From Candidatus Helarchaeota ASGARD archaeon Hel_GB_B (GTDB lineage Archaea > Asgardarchaeota > Lokiarchaeia > Helarchaeales > HEL-GB-B), in assembly GCA_005191425.1 (NCBI GenBank), contig SUPR01000028.1:5690-37689 (forward strand): a stretch of 32,000 nucleotides of DNA, read 5' to 3'. Within the stretch, counting starts at the first letter, position 1. The number at the start of each line of letters is the position of its first letter. This document shows positions 750-21,966 of this stretch, one piece after another. The notes below the pieces were generated by a model. It saw nothing but the letters and a program-made list of their open reading frames with translations, was not told the origin of the DNA and did not search any database. A program made the translations under genes and the position numbers.

Positions 750-1163
750 ATGGCTGTTGAAACAATAAAAACGAAGGTAGAAAGAGGAGAATTTGAAGCA
801 AAGGATTTTGGGATATATTTAATGGCAATAAAGGAGTTGGCAATAAAAGATAACGAAGTTAGAGAAATATTAAGAGAAATGCCTGATTTTGTGATACAAT
901 TTTCGATTTTTGGGGCGATAGATGTATATTTACAATTAAAAAATGGAAATTTAGAAGTGGTAGAGGGAGTAATAGAAAACCCAGCAATAAAATTTGAGAT
1001 GACAGATGTAGTAGCGACAGGGATAATAAAAAATGAAATAGATCCAATATCGGCATATTTATCTGGAGATATAAAAATAAATGGGGAAACTGTATTAGCG
1101 ATGAAATTAAAGCCAATAATTGAGAAATATAATAAGATATTGGGGTTTAAAGTTATAACTTAA
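750..1163 (+). CDS. SCP2 sterol/lipid-binding domain protein
   Basis: 137 aa; C-terminal DPISAYLSGDIKINGETVLAMKL matches the SCP2 consensus (dp..Af..GklkieGd...amkl). Confidence 0.85.
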   Translation: MAVETIKTKVERGEFEAKDFGIYLMAIKELAIKDNEVREILREMPDFVIQFSIFGAIDVYLQLKNGNLEVVEGVIENPAIKFEMTDVVATGIIKNEIDPISAYLSGDIKINGETVLAMKLKPIIEKYNKILGFKVIT

Positions 1164-1797
1164 AAAAGGCTTATAACCGAATCATGTAGAATTAGAATGG
1201 TGTAGTTTATAATCGTAGATAAAATTATAGAATGTTTTCTGAAATATCTTTATTCTGTTAATTTTTTCGCTAAAATCGCAATCAGAACTTTGATCAGTGG
1301 ACATAATAATATTTAGCGTAAGAAGATATAAAAAGACCACAATAACAGAAGAAATGCGAGAATTAAAACGCCAAATTTTTAAAGGATGAGGACGAGAAAA
1401 AATGATGATACATAAGATGTAAGGTTAAAAGTAATAAAATACAGTGGGATAAGTCTTAAAATAGTCAAAAATAAAAATAATAAAAAGTAGATAAAAAATA
1501 AAATTACCCGACTGAAATCAAGAGAATTATAAAATAATTTTAATAAGAAAAATAAAGAAAAAAAAAATTAAAATATTAAAAATGGGTTTGTAAATATCCT
1601 TAAGTCTGACGTTATTAAAATTACCAAATAAAATATTCAAAAAAAAAGTTAATAGAGTTAAAAAAAAATAATAATAATTGCAAAAAGCTATTCATTTTAA
1701 AAGAGGAATAATGAAGGTTTAATTTAAAGGTCAATGGAATTAAATTTTTAAAGACATATTTTCCATTTTTTATAATAAAATATGTCGGAGTAAAATA

Positions 1798-2991
1798 ATG
1801 GAAGAAAAACCCGAAAGATTAAAGATTATGGAATATGAAGTTGAAAAAAAAGATTTTAAAGCAATATTTTCAAGTAATATAATTGAACCGATAATTAAAT
1901 TTATTGAGAAGACAAAAATATATAAAATATTTTCACGAGTACCAAAAATAGTATATTATTTTATTGGACGAGGTTTTAGTTGGGAATTTTTTGGTGAATA
2001 TAAAAAAGAAATGGTCAAAACAACAAGGAAAATTATGGGAAAATTAGTAAATAGAAAATATAGAGAAAAAACAGTTGAAGAGAGAGATTGGGTTATAAAT
2101 GAAATAGTTTACCATAATACAGTCTATATGACGGAACTATTTTTAGAAATAATTATATTATTACCATATTTTTGCCACGTGAGAGATATAGACAGATTTT
2201 TTAAAATTAAAGGACTTGATTATTTAGATAATGCATTGAAGAAAGAAAGAGGAGTAATATTAATCTCTGGGCATATTGGAAATTATTTATTTATGTGTTG
2301 TTATTTAGCATTAAAAGGTTATAAAATAAACTTTATTTTAGAATACAGGTCATTCAGAGGTATTTTGAAATTATTAAAGAATTGTGGAATAAAGTTAATC
2401 CCAGTTCCAAGAATAGAAAACAATAAAATTAGAAACAAAATAAAAAAAATTATAGATAAAGCTTTAGATAATAATGAAATAGTAGTTATTATGCAAGATG
2501 CGGGCTTAAGACATTATATGTTAATAGATTTTTTTGGTGAACCATGTCATACAGCAACAGGTGCTATATCTTTAGCATTAAAACATGGATCGCCGATTAT
2601 ACCAATTTTCATTAGAAGTCAAGCTAAAAAACATGAGTATGAGATATCAATTTATCCTGAATTTAAGATTGAAAGAGAAAACATTAAGAACGATAAAGAA
2701 ATAATTTATTACAATACATATAGATTAAATAAAATACTTGAAGAGAAAATTAGGAGAAATATTATATATTGGAATAATTTAGCAATATATCATATAAGGA
2801 AATCGTTTAAAAAGAAGAACTTATTTGAGCAAAATTCAATTTTAGATAATTTAATCAACGAAATCCAATTTTTTAAAGATTATTTAAAATTTAGTTACGA
2901 AGTTAATAGAGATGACGAAAAAATAGAAAAAATTTTAGATGAAGCGAATTTTGAATTTAGAAAAATGAAGGACGAACAATCTAAATCATAA
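1798..2991 (+). CDS. LpxL/HtrB/PatA-family lysophospholipid acyltransferase, paralog A
   Basis: GLDYLDNALKKERGVILISGHIGNY, DFFG, ALKHGSPIIPIF and C-terminal W match the bacterial lipid A / PIM acyltransferase family. Confidence 0.8.
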   Translation: MEEKPERLKIMEYEVEKKDFKAIFSSNIIEPIIKFIEKTKIYKIFSRVPKIVYYFIGRGFSWEFFGEYKKEMVKTTRKIMGKLVNRKYREKTVEERDWVINEIVYHNTVYMTELFLEIIILLPYFCHVRDIDRFFKIKGLDYLDNALKKERGVILISGHIGNYLFMCCYLALKGYKINFILEYRSFRGILKLLKNCGIKLIPVPRIENNKIRNKIKKIIDKALDNNEIVVIMQDAGLRHYMLIDFFGEPCHTATGAISLALKHGSPIIPIFIRSQAKKHEYEISIYPEFKIERENIKNDKEIIYYNTYRLNKILEEKIRRNIIYWNNLAIYHIRKSFKKKNLFEQNSILDNLINEIQFFKDYLKFSYEVNRDDEKIEKILDEANFEFRKMKDEQSKS

Positions 2992-3114
2992 AATTTTATC
3001 TTAGTAATTTGAAAAACATTAAATTGGTCAAATAAATCCATAAAAATTAAGTTGTATAAAAAATCGATTTCAAAATAAATTTATTTTAAAAGTTTTAAGT
3101 CAATATTTCATTAT

Positions 3115-3513
3115 ATGAAAAACAAATTAATTAAAGAACAATACAAATTTTTTAAAAGAATTCCACAGGTTAGACCAATAAAAGAGGGAGAAATATTAAT
3201 AAAAATAGGGAATTTACAGTTATTACTTCAATATATTAATGATGAAATAAACATAAATAATGTTAAGGATATAAACAAAGAAGATTTCTGTGTCTTAAAG
3301 ATCTCAAGGAGTTCATTTAATTATATATTTAAAGCAAAAGATATAAATGATTATTATTCAAGGTTATTAAATATTGTTTTGTATAAAAAGGATATGAAAC
3401 TAGAAGTAAATGAAAATATTAAGCCAATGCGCAATGCTTTTTTTAAAATTTTAAGTATAAATCGAGGTAAAGGTGGAAAAAACAGATATGAATTGATGGT
3501 TGGATATTTATAA
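3115..3513 (+). CDS. hypothetical protein (possibly remote SCP2-like fold)
   Basis: 132 aa ORF co-oriented with neighbours; only a weak beta/alpha pattern resemblance to SCP2. Confidence 0.5.
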   Translation: MKNKLIKEQYKFFKRIPQVRPIKEGEILIKIGNLQLLLQYINDEININNVKDINKEDFCVLKISRSSFNYIFKAKDINDYYSRLLNIVLYKKDMKLEVNENIKPMRNAFFKILSINRGKGGKNRYELMVGYL

Positions 3514-3687
3514 CGAATTTTTGTAGATATTTGATAAAAATATGGCATTTAAAAAAGTAATAAATATAATAAAGAAATAACGAAATTTAATAAATAGAAA
3601 TTTTTTTTATTCAAATGAAATTAATTGAGTTAAATAAATGAATCATAAAAGTTTTCAATAAAAAATTAGTAATAATGATGAATAAAA

Positions 3688-4590
3688 ATGTTGCATTCAG
3701 TAATAATAATAAAAAAGGATTCCGGAATATGTCTTTTCAGTGAAAAAGAGTTAGATTTTGATTCTACATTATTTTCAGGATTTTTAACGGCGGTACAAAA
3801 TTTTGCTGAAAATTTGAAAATTGGGAGGCTAACAAGCTTTGTTACTAATGATAAGGTAGTAGTAATTTCATCGTCTGAGCAAGTGATTGCATCATTAATA
3901 GTAGATTTAGAAGATAATATCGATGATTGGTTCAGTAAAGCATATATAATTTGTGAAGAATTTGAAAAAAAATATAATTTAGAGGAATGGTCAGGGGAGA
4001 TTGGAAATTTTGAGGAGTTTTCAGAAATATTAAAAGAAATATTCAAATCGGAAAAGAAAAACTTTTTAGTAGAAGTAGCTAAATGGGCCAAAAAAGAATT
4101 TGGTGGAGAATTACAAATTAATGCCTTATTGAGTCCGGAAAAAGGGGCATCAAAATTGAAGGTGGATATATTATTAGATCGAGGAGAACTAGATATTTCA
4201 ACAATATATGACAAGCTTTCGGTTTTTCGATTTCAAGGATTAAAGAAAGACATAATATTTATTAAAGTAATTGATGGAATTGTAGGACGAGGAGAAATAA
4301 AAGACTTCATTGAATCTGTAGAACAATTTGGACAGATGGAAATTGACGAGAAAGACGAAGAAATATTTCCATATTTCCCAAAAATGATCGTAATAGTAGG
4401 TAGAGAATTCTCGGATACAGTATTCGATCTAACAGATAAATTATATAGAGTAAAAAATAAAAAGCATTTTATTCAGTCTAAAAATTTAAATTTGAAATTA
4501 TTAGGCCCAATTGGAAAGTTAGAAATTTTCAATGCATGGGTAGAATATTGGAAATGGAAAGAACCATACCCAGAGAGAATATTTAAATAG
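3688..4590 (+). CDS. longin-domain protein with C-terminal Mrr/restriction-endonuclease-like domain
   Basis: N-terminal ~120 aa (SGICLF...DSTLFSGFLTAVQNFAENL...FEKKY..EWSG...F) is typical of Asgard longins; the C-terminal half has VDILL...IIFIK...GRGEIKDF...IVIVGREFS. Confidence 0.7.
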   Translation: MLHSVIIIKKDSGICLFSEKELDFDSTLFSGFLTAVQNFAENLKIGRLTSFVTNDKVVVISSSEQVIASLIVDLEDNIDDWFSKAYIICEEFEKKYNLEEWSGEIGNFEEFSEILKEIFKSEKKNFLVEVAKWAKKEFGGELQINALLSPEKGASKLKVDILLDRGELDISTIYDKLSVFRFQGLKKDIIFIKVIDGIVGRGEIKDFIESVEQFGQMEIDEKDEEIFPYFPKMIVIVGREFSDTVFDLTDKLYRVKNKKHFIQSKNLNLKLLGPIGKLEIFNAWVEYWKWKEPYPERIFK

Positions 4591-4660
4591 TCATAAAAAG
4601 AATACCGAATTTTCAGTTTTCCATATTAATATTTCAATAATAAATTTTTGTGAGAAAAAT

Positions 4661-5830
4661 TTGTCATTCAAATTAAAAGATTTAATGCCTACAAGAAAAA
4701 TAATAGAGAGCGAAGAAGAAATTTTTTATATATTCAATGTAAAAATGGTAAAAAACATTATAGAAATTTTCAAATTTTTTAGATTATATTCGTTTTTCCC
4801 AAAAATACCCAAATCATTTTTAAAATTTTTAGCTCAAGGAGTAAGTCACGTAGTAATAAAAGATGAAACATACAACCAACCAATTATTAAATTCATTAAA
4901 AAGATTTTAGGGAAAAAGATTAATGAAAAATATCCTGGGAGAGAAAAATACATAATAAACAGGATTTTATTTCACAATTTTATAAAAATGTTTGAATTCT
5001 TTTTTGAAATAATATTATTGATGCCTCATTTTAATATGTATAGACAAATTGATGAATATGTTAAAATAAAAGGACGTAATTATTTAGATAATGCGCTAAA
5101 AAAGGGTAATGGAGTAATAATAGTTTCGGATCATATCGACAATTATCTTCTGTTTCTCATGTTCTTGGCTTTATCGGGTTATAAGGTAAATATAATAATG
5201 CAAATTCAGAGTTATACAAGTATTTTAAAAATTTTAAAAGAATCAGGATTAAAAATAATACCTAGCCCACCTTCAGGAAATGAGAAATTAAGGATAAAAA
5301 TAAGAAATTTAATAGAAAAAGTATTATATAACAATGAAATTTTAATTATTTTACAAGATTTTGGGAGCCAACACTATAAAATAATGGATTTTTTTGATGA
5401 ACTATGTTATACACCAATTGGAGTAGTTTCGCTAGCCTTAAAGTATAATTCACCAATTCTTATGGCTTTTTTCAAGAGTAACAAAAAAAAGTATAGATAT
5501 AAGATAACAATTACCCCTGAATTTAAAATTGAACGCAATTCAGACAAAAAAGCAGATATAATTTTACATAATACGTATAATATAAATAAAATTATAGAAA
5601 AACACATAAAAAGAAATATAATCGATTGGATGATAATCCCAATTTATTATAATAATAGGATATACAAGATTGGTGATATTAAAGATGAAGGTTCTCTTGT
5701 TAAAAAAATATTGAATAAAATTCAATTTTATGAAAATTTAATAAATAAAAGTTATGAACCAGGACGAGATAGTAAGAAGATTATTTTAGTTTTAAACAAA
5801 ATGAAGGAAGAGTTAAAAAGACTGGAATAA
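4661..5830 (+). CDS. LpxL/HtrB/PatA-family acyltransferase, paralog B
   Basis: TTG start (alternative ATG 4685); colinear with paralog A: YLDNALKKGNGVIIVSDHIDNY, DFF, SLALKYNSPIL. Confidence 0.8.
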   Translation: MSFKLKDLMPTRKIIESEEEIFYIFNVKMVKNIIEIFKFFRLYSFFPKIPKSFLKFLAQGVSHVVIKDETYNQPIIKFIKKILGKKINEKYPGREKYIINRILFHNFIKMFEFFFEIILLMPHFNMYRQIDEYVKIKGRNYLDNALKKGNGVIIVSDHIDNYLLFLMFLALSGYKVNIIMQIQSYTSILKILKESGLKIIPSPPSGNEKLRIKIRNLIEKVLYNNEILIILQDFGSQHYKIMDFFDELCYTPIGVVSLALKYNSPILMAFFKSNKKKYRYKITITPEFKIERNSDKKADIILHNTYNINKIIEKHIKRNIIDWMIIPIYYNNRIYKIGDIKDEGSLVKKILNKIQFYENLINKSYEPGRDSKKIILVLNKMKEELKRLE

Positions 5831-6676: not shown

Positions 6677-6923
6677 TTATATGAAGTCCTTTTATAATGT
6701 ATTTATTAATAACAAATAATTTAATATGACAAATATTTTAGAGATAAGCCCATTAAATAAGAATTTAAATTTTGTTAATTATATTTATTTAAATTTTTTA
6801 AGATTAAGAACTATGTTAAATATTTAAAAATGTTAGATATAAGTCTCTATTTATTTATAATTTGAAATTATTAATAAAATTATGAATAAAAAAAGAAATG
6901 AGACCAATGAAGGTTAGAAATAG

Positions 6924-8081
6924 ATGAGACGTGTCGGGATTATAGCTGCTGGTGAGTCGAAATTTGGAGCACGAGTAGGAATGGAATATGAAGAGTTGTT
7001 TGTTGAAGCATTTTTAGAAGCGATGGGACAAGTAGATAATTTAGAATCTAAAGATATTCAAGAAGCTTTTGTTGGTTCTTTAGCTTTTGGTGGTTCTCAA
7101 CTTGGAAATATGTCAGCACTTGTTGTTGACTCAGTAAATTTAATAGGAATACCTGCATCAAGAGTTGAAAATGCTTGCGGTTCAAGTGGATATGCTTTAC
7201 GATATGCTATAATGTCAATTGCTTCTGGAATAAATGATATAGTGATTGCAGGTGGAGTTGAAAAAATGCAAGATATTAGCAAAGCAACAAGGTTATATTG
7301 GTTTGGAGTTGCGGGCGACATAAAATGGGAGCGTTTATCTGGTATGACATTTCCTGGAAATTATGCTTTAATGGCGACAAGGCATATGAAAGAATTTGGT
7401 ACAAAAAAGGAAGCACTCTCAAGTGTTGCTGTTAAGAATCATGATTTTGCTTCAAGAAATCCAAAAGCTCAATTTCAAAGAAAAATTACATTAGAACAAG
7501 CAATGAATGCACCAATAGTAGCGTACCCATTAAATATTTATGATTGTTGCCCAATTACGGACGGTGCTTCTTGTGTCATTTTATGTGATTTAGAAATTGC
7601 AAAAAAATATACAGATACACCTATTGAAATTGTTGGATTTGGTGCCGGGACAGACCATTTGGCATTATATCAAAGAGAATCAATCACAAGAATAGATGCT
7701 GCAGTGAAAGCAAGCAAAATGGCATTTAAAATGGCAAATTTGCAACCTAAAGATATAGAGGTGGCTGAAGTGCATGACTGTTTTACTATTGCAGAAATTT
7801 TAGCTTATGAAGATATTGGGTTCTGTAAAAAAGGTGATGGAGGAAAAATGATTTTAGACGGAGAAACTACTATTCATGGGAGAATTCCAGTAAATACAGG
7901 AGGAGGGTTGAAAGCGAAAGGACACCCAATCGGAGCAACAGGAACAGCTCAAATATATGAAATATTCAAACAATTAAGAGGCGAGCATGAGAATCAAGTG
8001 CATGATGCAACAATTGGATTAACGCATAATGTAGGAGGCACGGGCTCTGCCTGTACGGTTACAATATTGAGGAGAGTATAA
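6924..8081 (+). CDS. archaeal-type thiolase (acetyl-CoA C-acyltransferase)
   Basis: VENACGSSG (catalytic Cys), EVHDCFT, KGHPIGATG, HNVGG. Confidence 0.93.
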   Translation: MRRVGIIAAGESKFGARVGMEYEELFVEAFLEAMGQVDNLESKDIQEAFVGSLAFGGSQLGNMSALVVDSVNLIGIPASRVENACGSSGYALRYAIMSIASGINDIVIAGGVEKMQDISKATRLYWFGVAGDIKWERLSGMTFPGNYALMATRHMKEFGTKKEALSSVAVKNHDFASRNPKAQFQRKITLEQAMNAPIVAYPLNIYDCCPITDGASCVILCDLEIAKKYTDTPIEIVGFGAGTDHLALYQRESITRIDAAVKASKMAFKMANLQPKDIEVAEVHDCFTIAEILAYEDIGFCKKGDGGKMILDGETTIHGRIPVNTGGGLKAKGHPIGATGTAQIYEIFKQLRGEHENQVHDATIGLTHNVGGTGSACTVTILRRV

Positions 8082-8084
8082 AAA

Positions 8085-9113
8085 ATGAGTAATAATGTAG
8101 GGATTATAGGTTATGGTACATACATACCAAGATATAGGATTAAAAAGGAAGAATATATAAAAACATGGGGGCATTTTTCAGGAAAAATTGAAGAAAAATC
8201 AGTAATAGGATATGACGAAGATGTTATTACAATGGCAGTGGAAGCCGGATATAATGCTATCCACAATTCAAGGATAAATAAAAATGACTTAAAATTAATT
8301 GCTATTGGAAGTGTATCATCTCCATATAATGTCAAATCAATGGCATCTGAAGTTGCAATGGCACTAGGACTACCAATGGACATATTATTATTAGATTTTA
8401 CAGAATCAGAGAAAGCAGGGACAACAGCATTATCTACGGGAATTGATATAATAGAAAATAAGGGTGGATATGGTCTTATCATAGGGTCAGATGCGCCGCT
8501 AGCAACCCCTGGAGATAGCTTGGAACATGTACAAGCTGCAGCTGCAGCTGCAATAGTTATTGGGAACAATAATAAATCCATTGCCGAAATAGTTGGTAAA
8601 AAAACGGCAAATATTGAATACATTTCGGATAGATTTAAAAGAAATGGAACAAAAATGATGAAAGACTTAGAAATTGCACCATACTCAAATTATGCTTATA
8701 ATAACACTATCAAAAAAACAGTTAACGATTTAACAGATGAGTTAAAGATCAAACTTAATGAATTTGATCATGTTTATATTCAAGGCCATGATTCAAGGCA
8801 ACCCACACGTATTTTTAAACAATTAAATAAAAATAAAATTTATTTGGATACTCTTAGAATTATTGGAGATACAGGTGCAGCATCTGCATTATTGGGTTTA
8901 AATGCAATATTATATTACAAAGCAAAAGAAAACGACAGAATTCTAATAGTTTCATATGGTTCGGGAGCTGGAAGTGATGCACTTGGAATAAAAGTAAATA
9001 GAAAACAAGATAAAATTAATGAAATTCCTACAATTGACCAGTATATAAATAGAAAAGAGTATATTAATTATGAAAAATATTTAAAATTTAAAGAATTAAT
9101 AGATTTGGATTAA
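8085..9113 (+). CDS. HMG-CoA synthase-like protein, catalytic residues absent (PhlA-like)
   Basis: Fold motifs present (GYGTYIPRYRI, DEDVITMAVEA, KAGT, YGSGAGSD), but V77, E109 and Q233 sit where archaeal HMGS has Glu, Cys and His. Confidence 0.85.
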   Translation: MSNNVGIIGYGTYIPRYRIKKEEYIKTWGHFSGKIEEKSVIGYDEDVITMAVEAGYNAIHNSRINKNDLKLIAIGSVSSPYNVKSMASEVAMALGLPMDILLLDFTESEKAGTTALSTGIDIIENKGGYGLIIGSDAPLATPGDSLEHVQAAAAAAIVIGNNNKSIAEIVGKKTANIEYISDRFKRNGTKMMKDLEIAPYSNYAYNNTIKKTVNDLTDELKIKLNEFDHVYIQGHDSRQPTRIFKQLNKNKIYLDTLRIIGDTGAASALLGLNAILYYKAKENDRILIVSYGSGAGSDALGIKVNRKQDKINEIPTIDQYINRKEYINYEKYLKFKELIDLD

Positions 9114-9130
9114 TAAAAGGTGAATTAAAA

Positions 9131-9553
9131 GTGGCACATGTGTCAATTCCTAAATATTGGAAAGCTTTACCGCAGAAATATAGATTAGTGGCAGGAAAAT
9201 GTTCAAATTGTGGAGAGTTGAATTTTCCACCGACTACATTATGTAAAAAGTGTGGACAAGAAAATACTCAAAAACACATCGAATTAAAAGGAAAAGGTAC
9301 AGTATATACATATACAATTATTGGAAGAGGAGGAGCTCCTCCGGAATTTGCAAAAATGCAAAAAAAATGCGGGCCATACGCAATAGCCATAGTAGAACTA
9401 GAAGAGGGACTAAAAATAAACGTACAATTAACGGATTGTGATCCTTTCAAAGATGTAAATATAGGAATGAAAGTTTCAGCAGTTTTTAGAAGAATATATG
9501 AACAAGAAAATGTAATAAGGTACGGTCTAAAATTCAGACCAATTATTGAATAA
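9131..9553 (+). CDS. DUF35 Zn-ribbon/OB-fold protein (thiolase-complex scaffold)
   Basis: GTG start after AGGTGA; CSNC...FPP...CKKC, GTVYTYT, AIVELEEG, YGLKFRP. Confidence 0.92.
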   Translation: MAHVSIPKYWKALPQKYRLVAGKCSNCGELNFPPTTLCKKCGQENTQKHIELKGKGTVYTYTIIGRGGAPPEFAKMQKKCGPYAIAIVELEEGLKINVQLTDCDPFKDVNIGMKVSAVFRRIYEQENVIRYGLKFRPIIE

Positions 9554-9612: not shown

Positions 9613-10677
9613 ATGATCGAATTTAAAAAAATAAAAAAATATGCTGAATTTCATAATCCAATGTATAATTTTGAATTAAAAAAACAGAAAGTAGAGTTCA
9701 GAGAGGACCCATTAACTGGTCAGAATTGTATAATTCCAGAGTCGCTATTAGATAAAGTAAAAATCATAATGAATAAACCATCTAAAAATATAATTCAAAA
9801 TATTATCGAAAATACCCAAGCTGGATGCCCATTTTGTCCAGATAAAATAATGACGCAAACACCAAATTTTGACGAAAAAATTATTCCAAACGGAAAAATT
9901 CAAATTGATGGAGCAATTGGATTTCCAAATATTTTCTCTTTTTTTGAACATTCTGCTGTTATTGTATTTACCGAGAAACATTTTTTAAATTTAGATGAAT
10001 TTTCACCAGATATAATTTATTCTGCATTAAAAGTTGCAAGGGAATACACGCATTATATATTAAAAGAATATGAAAATGTTGAATGTAACTGTATTTTAGG
10101 TTGTAATTATTTATATTCGGCAGGTTCTACTATCGTACATCCGCATTTTCAACTTTATTTGTCAGAAAATAATTTTTATTATAATAAAATACTATTGATA
10201 AATAGTAAAAAGTATTTTGAAAAAAATAAAAAGAATTTTTGGGATGATTTAATTAATTCAGAAAAAAATTTAAAAGAACGTTATATAGGGGCAATTGGGA
10301 CTACAGAATGGCTTGTTTCATTTGCTCCTCTAGGGGTATATGAAATCCAATGCATAGTTAAAAATAAAACATGTATTCATGAATTTACAGATAATAATCT
10401 TAAGGATATAGCTCAAGGATTATCTAATGTATTAAAATTTTATCATAAAAATAAAGTTACTTCTTTTAATTTTGCTTTATATTCTGCGCCATATAAATCT
10501 AAAGATAATTTAGATGAAATTAGAAAATACTTTTGGAGCTCTATGCGAATTATTGCTAGGCCAAATATAAGTAAAATTCCGCTAAATGATGTTTGGTTTC
10601 TCCCAAGGCTTATATATGATAATATTTCTCCAGTTGAACCTGAGAAATTATTACAAAAAGTTCAAGATTTTTTTTAA
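9613..10677 (+). CDS. GalT/HIT-superfamily nucleotidyltransferase (divergent)
   Basis: FREDPLTG, CPFC, FPN, AGSTIVHPHFQ (HxHxQ). Confidence 0.8.
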   Translation: MIEFKKIKKYAEFHNPMYNFELKKQKVEFREDPLTGQNCIIPESLLDKVKIIMNKPSKNIIQNIIENTQAGCPFCPDKIMTQTPNFDEKIIPNGKIQIDGAIGFPNIFSFFEHSAVIVFTEKHFLNLDEFSPDIIYSALKVAREYTHYILKEYENVECNCILGCNYLYSAGSTIVHPHFQLYLSENNFYYNKILLINSKKYFEKNKKNFWDDLINSEKNLKERYIGAIGTTEWLVSFAPLGVYEIQCIVKNKTCIHEFTDNNLKDIAQGLSNVLKFYHKNKVTSFNFALYSAPYKSKDNLDEIRKYFWSSMRIIARPNISKIPLNDVWFLPRLIYDNISPVEPEKLLQKVQDFF

Positions 10678-12771: not shown

Positions 12772-13752
12772 GTGGTTGATAAGATGACGGAGTTGCGCTG
12801 GAATCCAATTCTTCAAGAATGGACAATTATAGCTGGACATAGAGCTATAAGGCCGCAAGTGCATAAAAAAGCTAATATAATGGAGAAAAGTTGTCCATTT
12901 TGCGAGGGACAAGAAGAAGTAGAGGGCGAATGGATTGTAAAATACTTACCAAATAAATACCCTTCTTTGCAAATAAAACCACCAGAACCAAGTGTTTTAG
13001 GGAATGATTTAGTACCAGTTTTACCAGCAAAAGGGGTTTGTGAGGTAATAATATACACGAAAGACCATTATAAAACTTTGGAACGACTTCCTGTTGACCA
13101 TATTGTTAAAATTATTGAATTATGGACTAATAGATATGAAGAGATTGGTAAAATTAGCGAAATTAAATATGTCTTTATATTTGAAAATACAGGAACTGAA
13201 ATTGGAGTTTCCTTAGACCATCCACATGGTCAGATCTATTCTTTTCCATTTATCCCACCAAGAATTAAAGTAGAATTAAATTCATCAAAATCCTATTTTG
13301 AAAAAAATGAGAAATGCCTTTATTGTAGCATCATAGAATTCGAGATAAAAGATAAAAAAAGGATCATTTTTGAAAATGATGATTTTGTTTGTTTTATACC
13401 ATTTTTTTCACAATATGCATATGAGACATTTTTGATCCCAAAAAGACACATTCAAAGTCTTTCAGATTTAAAAGAAAATGAAATTAGAAATTTTGCTATA
13501 AGTTTAAAGCAGATTTTAAATATATATAGAAAAAGATTTCCCAATCAGCTTGATTATTTAATGCTTTTTCATCAGAAACCTACAACGGAAGAAAACTACG
13601 AATATTTTCATTTTTATGTAGAATTTATAGTAATTCAAAGGGGAGGAGGAAAAAAGAAATATTTGGGAGGAGTTGAAAGAGGTACTGGGACTATTATAAA
13701 TTCATCTAATCCAGAAAAAAATGCTAAAGAATTAAGAGAATTAAAAAATTAG
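12772..13752 (+). CDS. galT: galactose-1-phosphate uridylyltransferase (class I)
   Basis: ELRWNP, RAIRP, CPFC, NKYP, FEN..GVSLDHPHGQ; likely start ATG 12784. Confidence 0.88.
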   Translation: MVDKMTELRWNPILQEWTIIAGHRAIRPQVHKKANIMEKSCPFCEGQEEVEGEWIVKYLPNKYPSLQIKPPEPSVLGNDLVPVLPAKGVCEVIIYTKDHYKTLERLPVDHIVKIIELWTNRYEEIGKISEIKYVFIFENTGTEIGVSLDHPHGQIYSFPFIPPRIKVELNSSKSYFEKNEKCLYCSIIEFEIKDKKRIIFENDDFVCFIPFFSQYAYETFLIPKRHIQSLSDLKENEIRNFAISLKQILNIYRKRFPNQLDYLMLFHQKPTTEENYEYFHFYVEFIVIQRGGGKKKYLGGVERGTGTIINSSNPEKNAKELRELKN

Positions 13753-19355: not shown

Positions 19356-19898
19356 TTATTTTACTATTTTATTTGTCATTAAACGTGCTAGATAAATAAA
19401 AGCTTCTAATACATTTGTGCCATCAGCGGCAGAAGTTTCAAAAAATTTTGCATTTACTTTTTCTGCCATTTCTTTTATTTCTTCAGTAGATTTTTTTCTA
19501 ATTTCAGTGAGGTCAATTTTATTAGCAATTAAAACGCGGGGAATATCGCCGGAGTATTTGAGTAAGTCATCAAACCAATGTGGAATATTATTAAATGTTT
19601 CAGGTCTTGTGACATCAAATACAAGTATAGCAGATGAAGCACCTTGATAATACAAATGGCGGACATCTTTCCATTTACTTTGTCCAGCTATGTCCCACAT
19701 TAACAAGCGGATATTATCGCCATTTTCCTGAATTTCCTTTATCACAATATTAGTGCCCAAGGTAGGTTTGTATTCTTTAATAAATTTTTGTTCTGCAAAA
19801 CGATTAATTAGTGATGTTTTACCAACTGCGCCATCACCAATAACTACGACTTTGAATACATATCTATGTTTTGATTTTTCATCCATATTTATAATCAC
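19356..19898 (-). CDS. Rab-like small GTPase
   Basis: G1 GDGAVGKT, G2 YKPT, G3 WDIAGQ, YYQGA, G4 NKID, G5 ETSA; start GTG 19898 (GTGA overlap with upstream stop) or ATG 19886. Confidence 0.93.
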   Translation of the reverse strand: MIINMDEKSKHRYVFKVVVIGDGAVGKTSLINRFAEQKFIKEYKPTLGTNIVIKEIQENGDNIRLLMWDIAGQSKWKDVRHLYYQGASSAILVFDVTRPETFNNIPHWFDDLLKYSGDIPRVLIANKIDLTEIRKKSTEEIKEMAEKVNAKFFETSAADGTNVLEAFIYLARLMTNKIVK

Positions 19899-20494
19899 TC
19901 CTTTAGATATTCCTTTACATCAAGTTTATATTTTTTAACAATTCTAAATTCACAACATTTATCTCCCAATGCAATACATTTGTCTTCTATTACATCATAT
20001 TTTTCTCCTGTTTCGGATTCTTTAATTTTACTTAAAGCACCACCGATAATATGACAAATAGGTTTTCCAGACATTGATTTAAGTCCATAACAAATTGGGC
20101 ATTCATAGACGTCCACTATTTCTAAATCATCTTTCTTAATTAAATCCCATTTGCCTCCAATCCAGTTTTCCAATTTTTTAATCATTACATCTAAAGATAG
20201 CCCAAAAGGAGATAAGTATATCAACCATTTTCGCCCTGCTTCATATAAAATGGCAGAAGTACCAAACCCAAGTAGGACAAACATAGAATTAATTAAAGAA
20301 TGAAAAATATTATAATCAATTTTCTCGTCCATTGAAATTTCATCAGGGGTGTGAGTATGAATATATTTATCTAATTTTGCATATCTCAAAACACTATTTT
20401 TACCATCTTGTCCCATTATATCATTTAATGCCGTAAGTAAAGCATAAAAAACATTCATTGATATCTCTTTTTTCTCCATTGGATTTAAAGTCAT
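19895..20494 (-). CDS. V4R-domain protein (V4R/TRAPP-Bet3 superfamily)
   Basis: ECPIC...PICHIIGGAL...E..CIALGD..CEF is the V4R signature. Confidence 0.85.
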   Translation of the reverse strand: MTLNPMEKKEISMNVFYALLTALNDIMGQDGKNSVLRYAKLDKYIHTHTPDEISMDEKIDYNIFHSLINSMFVLLGFGTSAILYEAGRKWLIYLSPFGLSLDVMIKKLENWIGGKWDLIKKDDLEIVDVYECPICYGLKSMSGKPICHIIGGALSKIKESETGEKYDVIEDKCIALGDKCCEFRIVKKYKLDVKEYLKE

Positions 20495-21009: not shown

Positions 21010-21966
21010 GTGATGATAATGTTAAAAATAGATCTTAGTTTGGTAAATAAGGTATTAGAGAATCTGATAAATGCATTAACATCAATTCAAGCAGCAATGA
21101 TTTTCGATAATAAGGGAAATTTATTAACATCAATGATGAATAGTACACTTGATGAAGAGGAAATTGGTGGTACTACATCATTAATTTCGTTTATTTCCGA
21201 TAAAATAAAGATCGATTTCGAGACAGGATTATTTCAAAATTCATCTTTAAGTACTGATTATAGAAAGTTTATTTTCAGACAGATTGATGACCTTATTCTT
21301 GTCCTAATTTGTGATTTGAAATCGGATTTGAACATTATAAATCCTTATTCTGATTATGTAGCTACTAAAATTTTAAAAATAAATAAAAATGTTCAAATTG
21401 ACCCGTCTGTCCCGACTTTGGGAAAAATAGAAAGGCCTAAAAGAAAACCTAAGAACGAATATGTGTTTAAAATACTTATATTGGGGGATGCTGGTGTTGG
21501 TAAAACTACAACAACTGTGCGATTTGCCCAAGCATTATTTACCTCAGAATACAAACCTACATTAGGAGTAAATATTGTAAGAAATGAGTTTTGGATGAAT
21601 GATACGGATTTAATTCATTTTTCTATCTGGGACTTAGCTGGACAAGATAGGTGGGCTAGTATGAGAGGAATATATTATTCGGGTGCACAAGGTGCTTTAT
21701 TATTATTTGACACCACAAGATTAGATTCTTTTAGAAATCTTGATAAATGGATTAAAGAAATAAATACAAATACAATTAATATACCAGTAGTGTTAGTTGG
21801 AAATAAAATAGACCTTAAAGATTTAAGAAAAGTATCAAAAGAAGAGGGAATTAGAAAAGCCCAGGAATATGGTTATCGATATATTGAAACTTCAGCTAAA
21901 ACTTCGGAAAATATTAAGGAAACTTTTAAATTACTTGTAAAGGATATGATTAAGGGTAAAATATAA
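21010..21966 (+). CDS. roadblock/LC7-like domain fused to Rab-like GTPase
   Basis: N-terminal IQAAMIFDNKGNLL..., roadblock-type; C-terminal GDAGVGKT, YKPT, WDLAGQ, NKID, ETSA. Confidence 0.88.
   Translation: MMIMLKIDLSLVNKVLENLINALTSIQAAMIFDNKGNLLTSMMNSTLDEEEIGGTTSLISFISDKIKIDFETGLFQNSSLSTDYRKFIFRQIDDLILVLICDLKSDLNIINPYSDYVATKILKINKNVQIDPSVPTLGKIERPKRKPKNEYVFKILILGDAGVGKTTTTVRFAQALFTSEYKPTLGVNIVRNEFWMNDTDLIHFSIWDLAGQDRWASMRGIYYSGAQGALLLFDTTRLDSFRNLDKWIKEINTNTINIPVVLVGNKIDLKDLRKVSKEEGIRKAQEYGYRYIETSAKTSENIKETFKLLVKDMIKGKI

Follow-up and report, generated by a model that had tools for sequence, protein, structure and literature searches.

Complexes that combine a thiolase, a protein of the hydroxymethylglutaryl-coenzyme A (HMG-CoA) synthase (HMGS) family and a DUF35 protein are known in several forms. 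Archaeal complexes are said to serve the mevalonate pathway almost universally (PMC12960953), and that of Methanothermococcus thermolithotrophicus has been solved (6ESQ, 6ET9). In bacteria, to which the mining in their study was confined, Liao et al. (Nat Commun 2026; PMC12960953) described PhlACB and MucABC as having lost both the catalytic tetrad of HMGS and the HDxF motif of the thiolase and as performing Friedel-Crafts C-acetylation, found 1,001 of 1,030 HMGS/ACAT/DUF35 clusters to be without biosynthetic neighbours, and showed that an archaeal HMGS variant with PhlA-type residues (E82C/C114G/H238Q/N270D) is inactive. They also characterised PfACAT/HMGS-DUF35 of Pseudomonas fluorescens, in which the tetrad is dead and the thiolase Cys/HDxF/GHx motifs are intact; this complex produced neither HMG-CoA nor acetoacetyl-CoA from acetyl-CoA, and cleaved acetoacetyl-CoA. 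A thiolase/DUF35 pair, Saci_1121/Saci_1120, forms the core of the fatty-acid synthase assembly of Sulfolobus acidocaldarius, and Asgard genomes carry 3.8 such pairs on average (10.1101/2024.07.05.601840). Here we analyse a three-gene operon in a 32-kb stretch of the genome of Candidatus Helarchaeota archaeon Hel_GB_B (C105:5690-37689; contig SUPR01000028.1; the whole stretch is called the window below), which encodes an SCP2-type thiolase, an HMGS-like subunit and a DUF35 protein. Its closest known system is PfACAT/HMGS-DUF35.

An HMGS-like subunit with all four catalytic residues replaced

The three genes lie on the same strand in the order thiolase, HMGS-like, DUF35, separated by gaps of 3 nt (AAA) and 17 nt, with a Shine-Dalgarno-like AGGAG just 5' of the HMGS-like start and GGTG just 5' of the DUF35 start. 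HMMER alignment of the HMGS-like protein to the solved HMGS of M. thermolithotrophicus (6esq_I) placed V77 (GTA, 8313-8315) opposite the Glu of GSES, E109 (GAG, 8409-8411) opposite the Cys of EFACKAGT, Q233 (CAA, 8781-8783) opposite the His of FHQPN and D262 (GAT, 8868-8870) opposite the Asn of GNTYS. All four residues of the tetrad are hence replaced, the protein reading V/E/Q/D where HMGS reads E/C/H/N. The Glu at the Cys position sits inside an ESEKAG motif and is invariant in 26 of 26 orthologues; Glu107 is its neighbour, and a His is frequent at position 235, with Arg or Lys in some orthologues. The AlphaFold2 model of the protein reached a predicted local distance difference test (pLDDT) score of 88.1, and its top fold matches were 6esq_I, MucA and PhlA, with template-modelling (TM) scores of 0.85, 0.83 and 0.82, respectively. 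Of the two HMGS profiles, NF003274 ('HMG-CoA synthase') was passed with 267.8 bits against a cut-off of 244, and TIGR00748 was not (204.7 bits against 353).

The thiolase retains its catalytic motifs, namely Cys85 in ENACGSS (7176-7178), H284-D-C286-F (7773-7784) and G333-H334-P335 (7920-7928), which align with those of the 6esq_A thiolase over the full length and are invariant in 12 orthologues. It scored 495 bits with NF004720 (cut-off 420), and 301 bits with 6esq_A, its best solved relative, compared with 208 bits for 7pxp_C and 136 bits for PhlC. The DUF35 protein combines zinc-ribbon cysteines (C24/C27/C38/C41, all four invariant in 12 orthologues) with an OB fold, and its best solved relative is 6esq_E (101 bits, versus 38 bits for PhlB).

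Taken as a whole, the M. thermolithotrophicus complex is the best solved relative of the trio (the HMGS-like subunit scoring 162 bits), sharing with it the three co-encoded subunits, the fold modelled for the HMGS-like protein (TM scores of 0.85-0.87) and the thiolase motifs including HDCF. It differs in that the HMGS site is abolished here, in gene order (thiolase first, as opposed to HMGS-thiolase-DUF35 in the sampled intact operons) and in that mevalonate genes are not linked to the trio. The BbsAB benzoylsuccinyl-CoA thiolase (7PXP) likewise pairs an SCP2-type thiolase with a bound DUF35 protein and uses HDxF chemistry, but it consists of two subunits without an HMGS-like partner and acts on an aromatic substrate, and the NCBIfam scores of our proteins fall far under the equivalog cut-offs. 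With PfACAT/HMGS-DUF35 the trio has in common the lost tetrad, the retained thiolase Cys/HDxF/GHx and the absence of neighbouring genes for polyketide synthases (PKS) or non-ribosomal peptide synthetases (NRPS). In the P. fluorescens complex the HMGS-like and DUF35 parts are fused, whereas here they are encoded by separate genes in the order thiolase-HMGS-like-DUF35, in an Asgard host and with an invariant Glu at the nucleophile position. A fused form like that of P. fluorescens is present in the same genome (at C93, see below), and fusion, which distinguishes the characterised example, is perhaps not general in the class.

We also considered whether the trio might be a Friedel-Crafts C-acyltransferase, CoA-independent or acetyl-CoA-dependent, with a phenolic or dione acceptor, like PhlACB (PpATase; 5M3K/5MG5/9SKH) or MucABC (SmaATase; 9VBO). 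These systems have the same three folds and three-subunit architecture, including a non-catalytic HMGS-like subunit, and the fold matches to PhlA and MucA have TM scores of 0.82-0.83. At the His and Asn positions PhlA (9skh_A, 5m3k_A) reads FQQN and IGDTGAAS or VGDAGSAS, so that the His-to-Gln and Asn-to-Asp changes, as well as the GD(T/A)G(A/S)AS motif, are common to it and the HMGS-like protein, which itself carries GDTGAAS. Over the complete tetrad, however, PhlA reads Cys/Gly/Gln/Asp and the studied protein Val/Glu/Gln/Asp. Moreover, the thiolase keeps HDCF, whereas PhlC and MucB are marked by the loss of HDxF and have gained acceptor-binding residues (PMC12960953), the acceptor site of PhlC comprising the general base Glu116, an Asp137-Thr132-His144 relay, His56, Tyr124 and Trp211. 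Each subunit obtains lower scores with Phl and Muc proteins than with the archaeal complex, and neither the window nor the eight orthologue loci contained a PKS or NRPS gene. We therefore regard such an acyltransferase as very unlikely.

A preliminary description, made from the sequence of this locus, had proposed a tight three-gene operon with an intact thiolase (ENAC, HDCF, GHP) and an HMGS homologue altered at V77, E109, Q233 and in IGDTGAAS. The open reading frame (ORF) map, the codons and the alignments to 6esq_A and 6esq_I bear out each of these observations, and the His-to-Gln and GDxGAAS changes that it had named for PhlA are indeed seen in the PhlA alignments. Its view of the thiolase as archaeal-type and not PhlC-like agrees with the bit scores and with the retained HDCF. 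The label 'PhlACB-like' that it gave to the trio holds for the Gln and Asp changes shared with PhlA but otherwise goes too far, since the mevalonate complex of archaea is the nearer relative of every subunit and HDxF has not been lost. Its statement that the complex cannot make HMG-CoA fits the published mutagenesis and the tetrad-less bacterial complex (PMC12960953), by analogy with which the Helarchaeota trio would be inactive as an HMGS.

Conservation, co-divergence and a separate mevalonate synthase

Among 120 database homologues of the HMGS-like protein, the 26 nearest, all of them with Asgard labels and 48-99% identical, carry the tetrad signature x-E-Q-D (x, variable) with no exception. 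When 22 orthologues were aligned, 53 columns proved invariant, among them S108-E109-K110-A111, Q233 and G261-D262; in the wider tetrad-less clade, Thr, Ser, Ala, Pro, Ile or Val are allowed at the Cys position. Within a sample of 81 genomes of the class, all seven searched from the order to which the window belongs contained an orthologue (50-62% identity), and the remaining families yielded none. Ratios of non-synonymous to synonymous substitution (dN/dS; Nei-Gojobori) lay between 0.06 and 0.18, values that are rough upper-bound indications because dS was saturated (>1.2). We saw no frameshifts or stops in the orthologues. Compared with the same relative, the HMGS-like protein is 70% identical, the thiolase 90% and the DUF35 protein 86%, which corresponds to an approximately three times faster evolution of the HMGS-like gene and fits a subunit that is needed but non-catalytic. 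Judged from these sequence comparisons, the HMGS-like gene is under selection and not decaying. The orthologue at locus L016 (DATKTP010000193.1) lies on a contig binned to a bacterial metagenome-assembled genome (MAG) labelled Candidatus Deferrimicrobium; it has a Helarchaeota-type trio with the signature S-E-Q-D and falls inside the Helarchaeota clade in both trees described below. Mis-binning is the likely cause, a recent transfer less so.

For the phylogeny of the HMGS-like proteins we used a quick maximum-likelihood search with 67 non-redundant homologues, some rows of which are long; PhlA, PhlC, MucA/B and the P. fluorescens complex were left out of this and the thiolase tree. All tetrad-less proteins fell on one side of a branch with a Shimodaira-Hasegawa-like approximate likelihood ratio test (SH-aLRT) support of 100, and within them the x-E-Q-D group was monophyletic (SH-aLRT 100). 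The thiolase tree mirrored this topology: thiolases from operons of the order thiolase-HMGS-like-DUF35 (T-H-D) formed one clade (100), as did the partners of the x-E-Q-D proteins (100). PhlA was placed by pairwise and profile scores together with the published tree (PMC12960953); a profile of the dead clade scored 338 bits with 6esq_I and 290 and 285 bits with PhlA, and PhlA's place in the sampled dead clade is not established by these scores.

Gene order follows the same division. In a survey of 80 loci from species-representative genomes, intact HMGS genes stood in the order HMGS-thiolase-DUF35 (H-T-D), whereas tetrad-less genes either stood after the thiolase gene and before that for DUF35, or were fused with the latter and preceded the thiolase gene. 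At 22 of the 24 tetrad-less loci a dead tetrad was combined with a thiolase that has Cys, HDCF and GHP. Contigs with the tetrad-less form were labelled Helarchaeota, Odin- and Baldrarchaeota, Bathyarchaeota, a Euryarchaeota MAG, Syntrophobacterales, Desulfocucumis, Deltaproteobacteria and Pseudomonadota. The tetrad-less module thus looks like an old, co-diverging and stable lineage and not a transitional one, which makes the 'evolutionary intermediate' of the preliminary description doubtful.

Two further patterns emerged from the survey. Three Chloroflexota loci (L033, L035, L037) show partial tetrad losses (G/F/H/N, E/G/H/S) inside the otherwise intact H-T-D clade, and these independent partial losses show that the tetrad has been lost more than once. 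The reciprocal case, a dead thiolase with a live HMGS, occurs in many Chloroflexota and some Thermoproteota (L046, L053 of Pelolinea submarina, L056, L057, L062, L073, L076 of Herpetosiphon llansteffanensis, L078, L084, L054, L066, L072 and L083), where HMGS-thiolase-DUF35 operons have an intact E/C/H/N tetrad and a thiolase whose Cys is replaced by Glu, Asp or Gly, often without HDxF and GHx.

The genome encodes four HMGS-like proteins. Besides the trio under study (C105), there is a set on C150 in the order HMGS-like, DUF35, thiolase with the residues I/A/Q/D, and one on C93 (residues T/T/Y/N) in which the HMGS-like and DUF35 genes are fused and the thiolase gene comes next. The fourth, a 545-aa protein with an intact E/C/H/N tetrad, is encoded on C95 (C95:15953-17590; L010:7957-9591, minus strand) in a mevalonate operon with genes for an MVD-like decarboxylase, a class II HMG-CoA reductase and mevalonate kinase; a cis-prenyltransferase gene adjoins it. 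This protein has a C-terminal extension of approximately 170 aa without a Pfam match. HMGS proteins of the C95 type recurred within the genus and in 70 of the 74 genomes from the class's other families, and were not found in the five genomes of two sister families of the order; three of these five (loci L105, L106 and L109 among them) instead encode a 550-aa fusion of an N-terminal DUF35-like part to an HMGS with intact tetrad, and a fourth has an N-terminal fragment of it. The C150-type paralogue was tetrad-less in every genome of the order that we examined. As read from these genes, the mevalonate HMGS of the order is a separate, domain-fused protein, and the examined C105- and C150-type operon copies are all tetrad-less. 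The C105-type trio is unlinked to mevalonate genes, which are located with their own HMGS on another contig. In total, the genome has seven SCP2-type thiolase/DUF35 pairs.

These data bear on two further readings, a genuine HMGS module with non-canonical residues and a decaying pseudogene, which together we find hardly credible. For the former speak the NF003274 score and the name given to orthologues in public records. We rejected it because the tetrad is fully replaced, the equivalent quadruple mutant is dead (PMC12960953) and an intact HMGS is present in the mevalonate operon; the trio is, as far as residues and gene linkage can tell, not a mevalonate module despite the annotation to be expected for it. 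A pseudogene was rejected given the intact frame, the presence of orthologues throughout the searched genomes of the order and the low dN/dS. Both a lone recent pseudogene and a second, catalytic HMGS elsewhere in the genome had been raised as possibilities at the outset: the loss of the tetrad has turned out to be ancient and conserved (26/26 orthologues, 7/7 genomes), and the catalytic HMGS was found on C95.

A proposed thiolase complex and a possible second active site

Collectively, we consider it probable that only the thiolase is catalytic and that the operon encodes a scaffolded short-chain 3-ketoacyl-CoA thiolase complex, in which the HMGS-like and DUF35 proteins are retained as structural partners. 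That the three proteins form a complex, as well as its substrate and direction, we infer from the described relatives; in a complex prediction with thiolase, DUF35 and HMGS-like subunits, a control with a swapped thiolase scored as high as the real set, and we count the prediction neither for nor against the complex. Based on the chemistry of the family, Cys85 of the thiolase would take up the acyl group after activation by His334 of GHP, and the HDCF motif (His284/Cys286) would handle the enolate, the outcome being a reversible Claisen condensation or the thiolysis of acetoacetyl-CoA or other short 3-ketoacyl-CoAs. Having no nucleophile, general base or oxyanion partners, the HMGS-like subunit would be structural and probably still part of a shared CoA-binding surface, and DUF35 would clamp it and the thiolase together. 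Since acetoacetyl-CoA would not be consumed within the complex, the thiolytic direction is probably favoured in the cell, where thiolysis may constitute the last step of short-chain acyl-CoA beta-oxidation in a Helarchaeales-type organism. Alternatively, a downstream enzyme docked on DUF35 might pull the condensation.

Several observations weigh against this proposal. A Glu that never varies at the Cys position, next to Glu107 and an often present His235, goes beyond the obvious needs of a pure scaffold. Because the genome has seven thiolase/DUF35 pairs, the beta-oxidation role is not assignable to the C105 set in particular. The flanking genes fix no pathway, and the nearby SCP2 and LpxL/PatA-like genes would suit fatty-acyl biosynthesis no less than degradation. 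Finally, two orthologue loci from one x-E-Q-D subclade (L009 and L128; proteins P0026 and P0016) encode the HMGS-like and DUF35 proteins without an adjacent thiolase. A radical-SAM gene is located upstream on the opposite strand at these two loci, and a gene of the acetoacetate-decarboxylase family lies two genes away at L009.

The first of these observations would be accommodated if the HMGS-like subunit were not inert and Glu109, with Glu107 and His235, formed a new active site, acting as thioester hydrolase, CoA-transferase or decarboxylase on the product of the thiolase. Such an activity would draw the condensation, unfavourable by itself, towards its product, which is the part played by true HMGS in the mevalonate complex. 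In line with this possibility, Glu is invariant in the 26 orthologues within a fully conserved S-E-K-A, at a position that varies in the wider dead clade, the fold is predicted with confidence, and an acetoacetate-decarboxylase-family gene is near at L009, a single weak case. However, none of the four canonical residues is left, the oxyanion and His partners included, and His235 is not invariant. Replacement of Cys by Glu or Asp is also seen in the degenerate thiolase subunits of Chloroflexota, suggesting that a carboxylate may be a tolerated filler at this position, and the HMGS-like protein evolves about three times faster than the thiolase. We know of no precedent in the thiolase superfamily. 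We thus consider a new active site unlikely, and retain the thiolase complex with structural partners as our proposal.

Gene neighbourhood and biological meaning

The features of the locus are listed in Table 1. The host is an Asgard archaeon; close homologues come from MAGs labelled Helarchaeota and Lokiarchaeota, and the window contains genes for Ras-family GTPases. The latter, with the V4R-domain gene, adjoin a cluster of ribosomal-protein and RNA-polymerase genes; such a gene set is usual Asgard content. When sequencing runs were searched with the locus, DNA matches came from hydrothermal-vent and sediment metagenomes, and no RNA run was among those listed. Across the orthologue loci compared, synteny of flanking genes is limited to the genus or family, and the 354-aa ORF that follows the trio is kept in same-genus or same-family relatives only.

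Table 1. Features of the operon and its surroundings (positions in the window; aa, amino acids)
Feature	Position	Strand	Remarks
SCP2 sterol-carrier-type gene	750..1163		Upstream of operon
LpxL/PatA-like acyltransferase gene	1798..2991		Lip_A_acyltrans; upstream of operon
300-aa protein	3688..4590		No family assignment; upstream of operon
LpxL/PatA-like acyltransferase gene	4661..5830		Lip_A_acyltrans; upstream of operon
Presumed promoter region, AT-rich intergenic	6677..6923	+	Upstream of operon, bounded by divergent methyltransferase gene; from sequence and ORF map
SCP2-type thiolase, 385 aa	6924..8081	+	Pfam Thiolase_N and Thiolase_C_1; NF004720
HMG-CoA-synthase-like subunit, 342 aa	8085..9113	+	Alignment to 6esq_I and PhlA; NF003274
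DUF35 protein, 140 aa, GTG start	9131..9553	+	Pfam zf-ChsH2 and OB_ChsH2_C
354-aa ORF	9613..10677		59 nt 3' of DUF35; no Pfam match, faint GalT match (29 bits)
Regular GalT gene	12772..13752		2 kb beyond the 354-aa ORF
Two Ras-family small GTPase genes (one with 150-aa N-terminal extension) and a V4R-domain gene	19356..19898, 19895..20494, 21010..21966

The block of SCP2 and acyltransferase genes upstream of the operon (750-5830) is syntenic in the 70%-identity relative (L007). Transferases of acyl chains are a surprise in an archaeon, and we asked whether the trio could be the condensing core of a fatty-acid synthase independent of acyl carrier protein, of the Saci_1121/1120 type, with the dead HMGS-like protein as an extra platform feeding the LpxL/PatA-like acyltransferases. 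Like the Sulfolobus pair, the studied thiolase is of the SCP2 type, is co-encoded with DUF35 and is one of several pairs; such pairs make up the S. acidocaldarius synthase core and are multiplied in Asgard genomes (10.1101/2024.07.05.601840). The SCP2 gene and the two Lip_A_acyltrans genes 1-6 kb upstream lend weak support through their synteny, and an SCP2 gene is again adjacent at a more distant orthologue locus. The Sulfolobus assembly, however, recruits a reductase and a dehydratase and has no HMGS-like subunit. No gene for a ketoacyl-CoA reductase, MaoC dehydratase or enoyl-CoA reductase is present in the window, neither reductase, dehydratase nor mevalonate genes were found near the trio in the window and the orthologue flanks, and the acyltransferase neighbourhood is not kept beyond the closest relatives. 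We give this explanation a slim chance only.

The concept of a tetrad-less complex has already been published for bacteria, in January 2026, with PfACAT/HMGS-DUF35. New are the Asgard lineage with its invariant Cys-to-Glu replacement, its own operon order, the three dead sets per genome and the consequence for HMGS annotation. The dead form, besides its occurrence in bacteria, extends to archaea, namely Helarchaeales, Odin- and Baldrarchaeota, Bathyarchaeota and a Euryarchaeota MAG. As NF003274 passes both the studied protein and a paralogue, and the orthologues bear the name 'hydroxymethylglutaryl-CoA synthase' in public records, any reconstruction of isoprenoid and lipid synthesis in Asgard archaea that counts tetrad-less genes as HMGS would be wrong.

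For the organism, the trio is a candidate for the thiolase step in the short-chain acyl-CoA metabolism of Asgard archaea that putatively oxidise alkanes. Helarchaeota have been proposed to oxidise short alkanes, with a beta-oxidation that ends in acetyl-CoA acetyltransferase (Seitz et al., PMC6478937), and the genome contains an MCR-alpha-like domain in a 609-aa frame (C103:30835-31227; L124), which fits the alkyl-coenzyme-M reductase reported for Helarchaeota. Should the Glu of the Helarchaeales clade instead be a new catalytic residue, with the HMGS-like protein hydrolysing, transferring or decarboxylating the thiolase product, which we rate as distinctly improbable, the operon would encode a kind of condensing machine not described before, such as a thiolase complex that forms acetoacetate or recycles CoA, with a chemistry new to the thiolase superfamily. 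For the family, the trio may serve as a test case for why an inactive partner with a thiolase fold stays in place for hundreds of millions of years.

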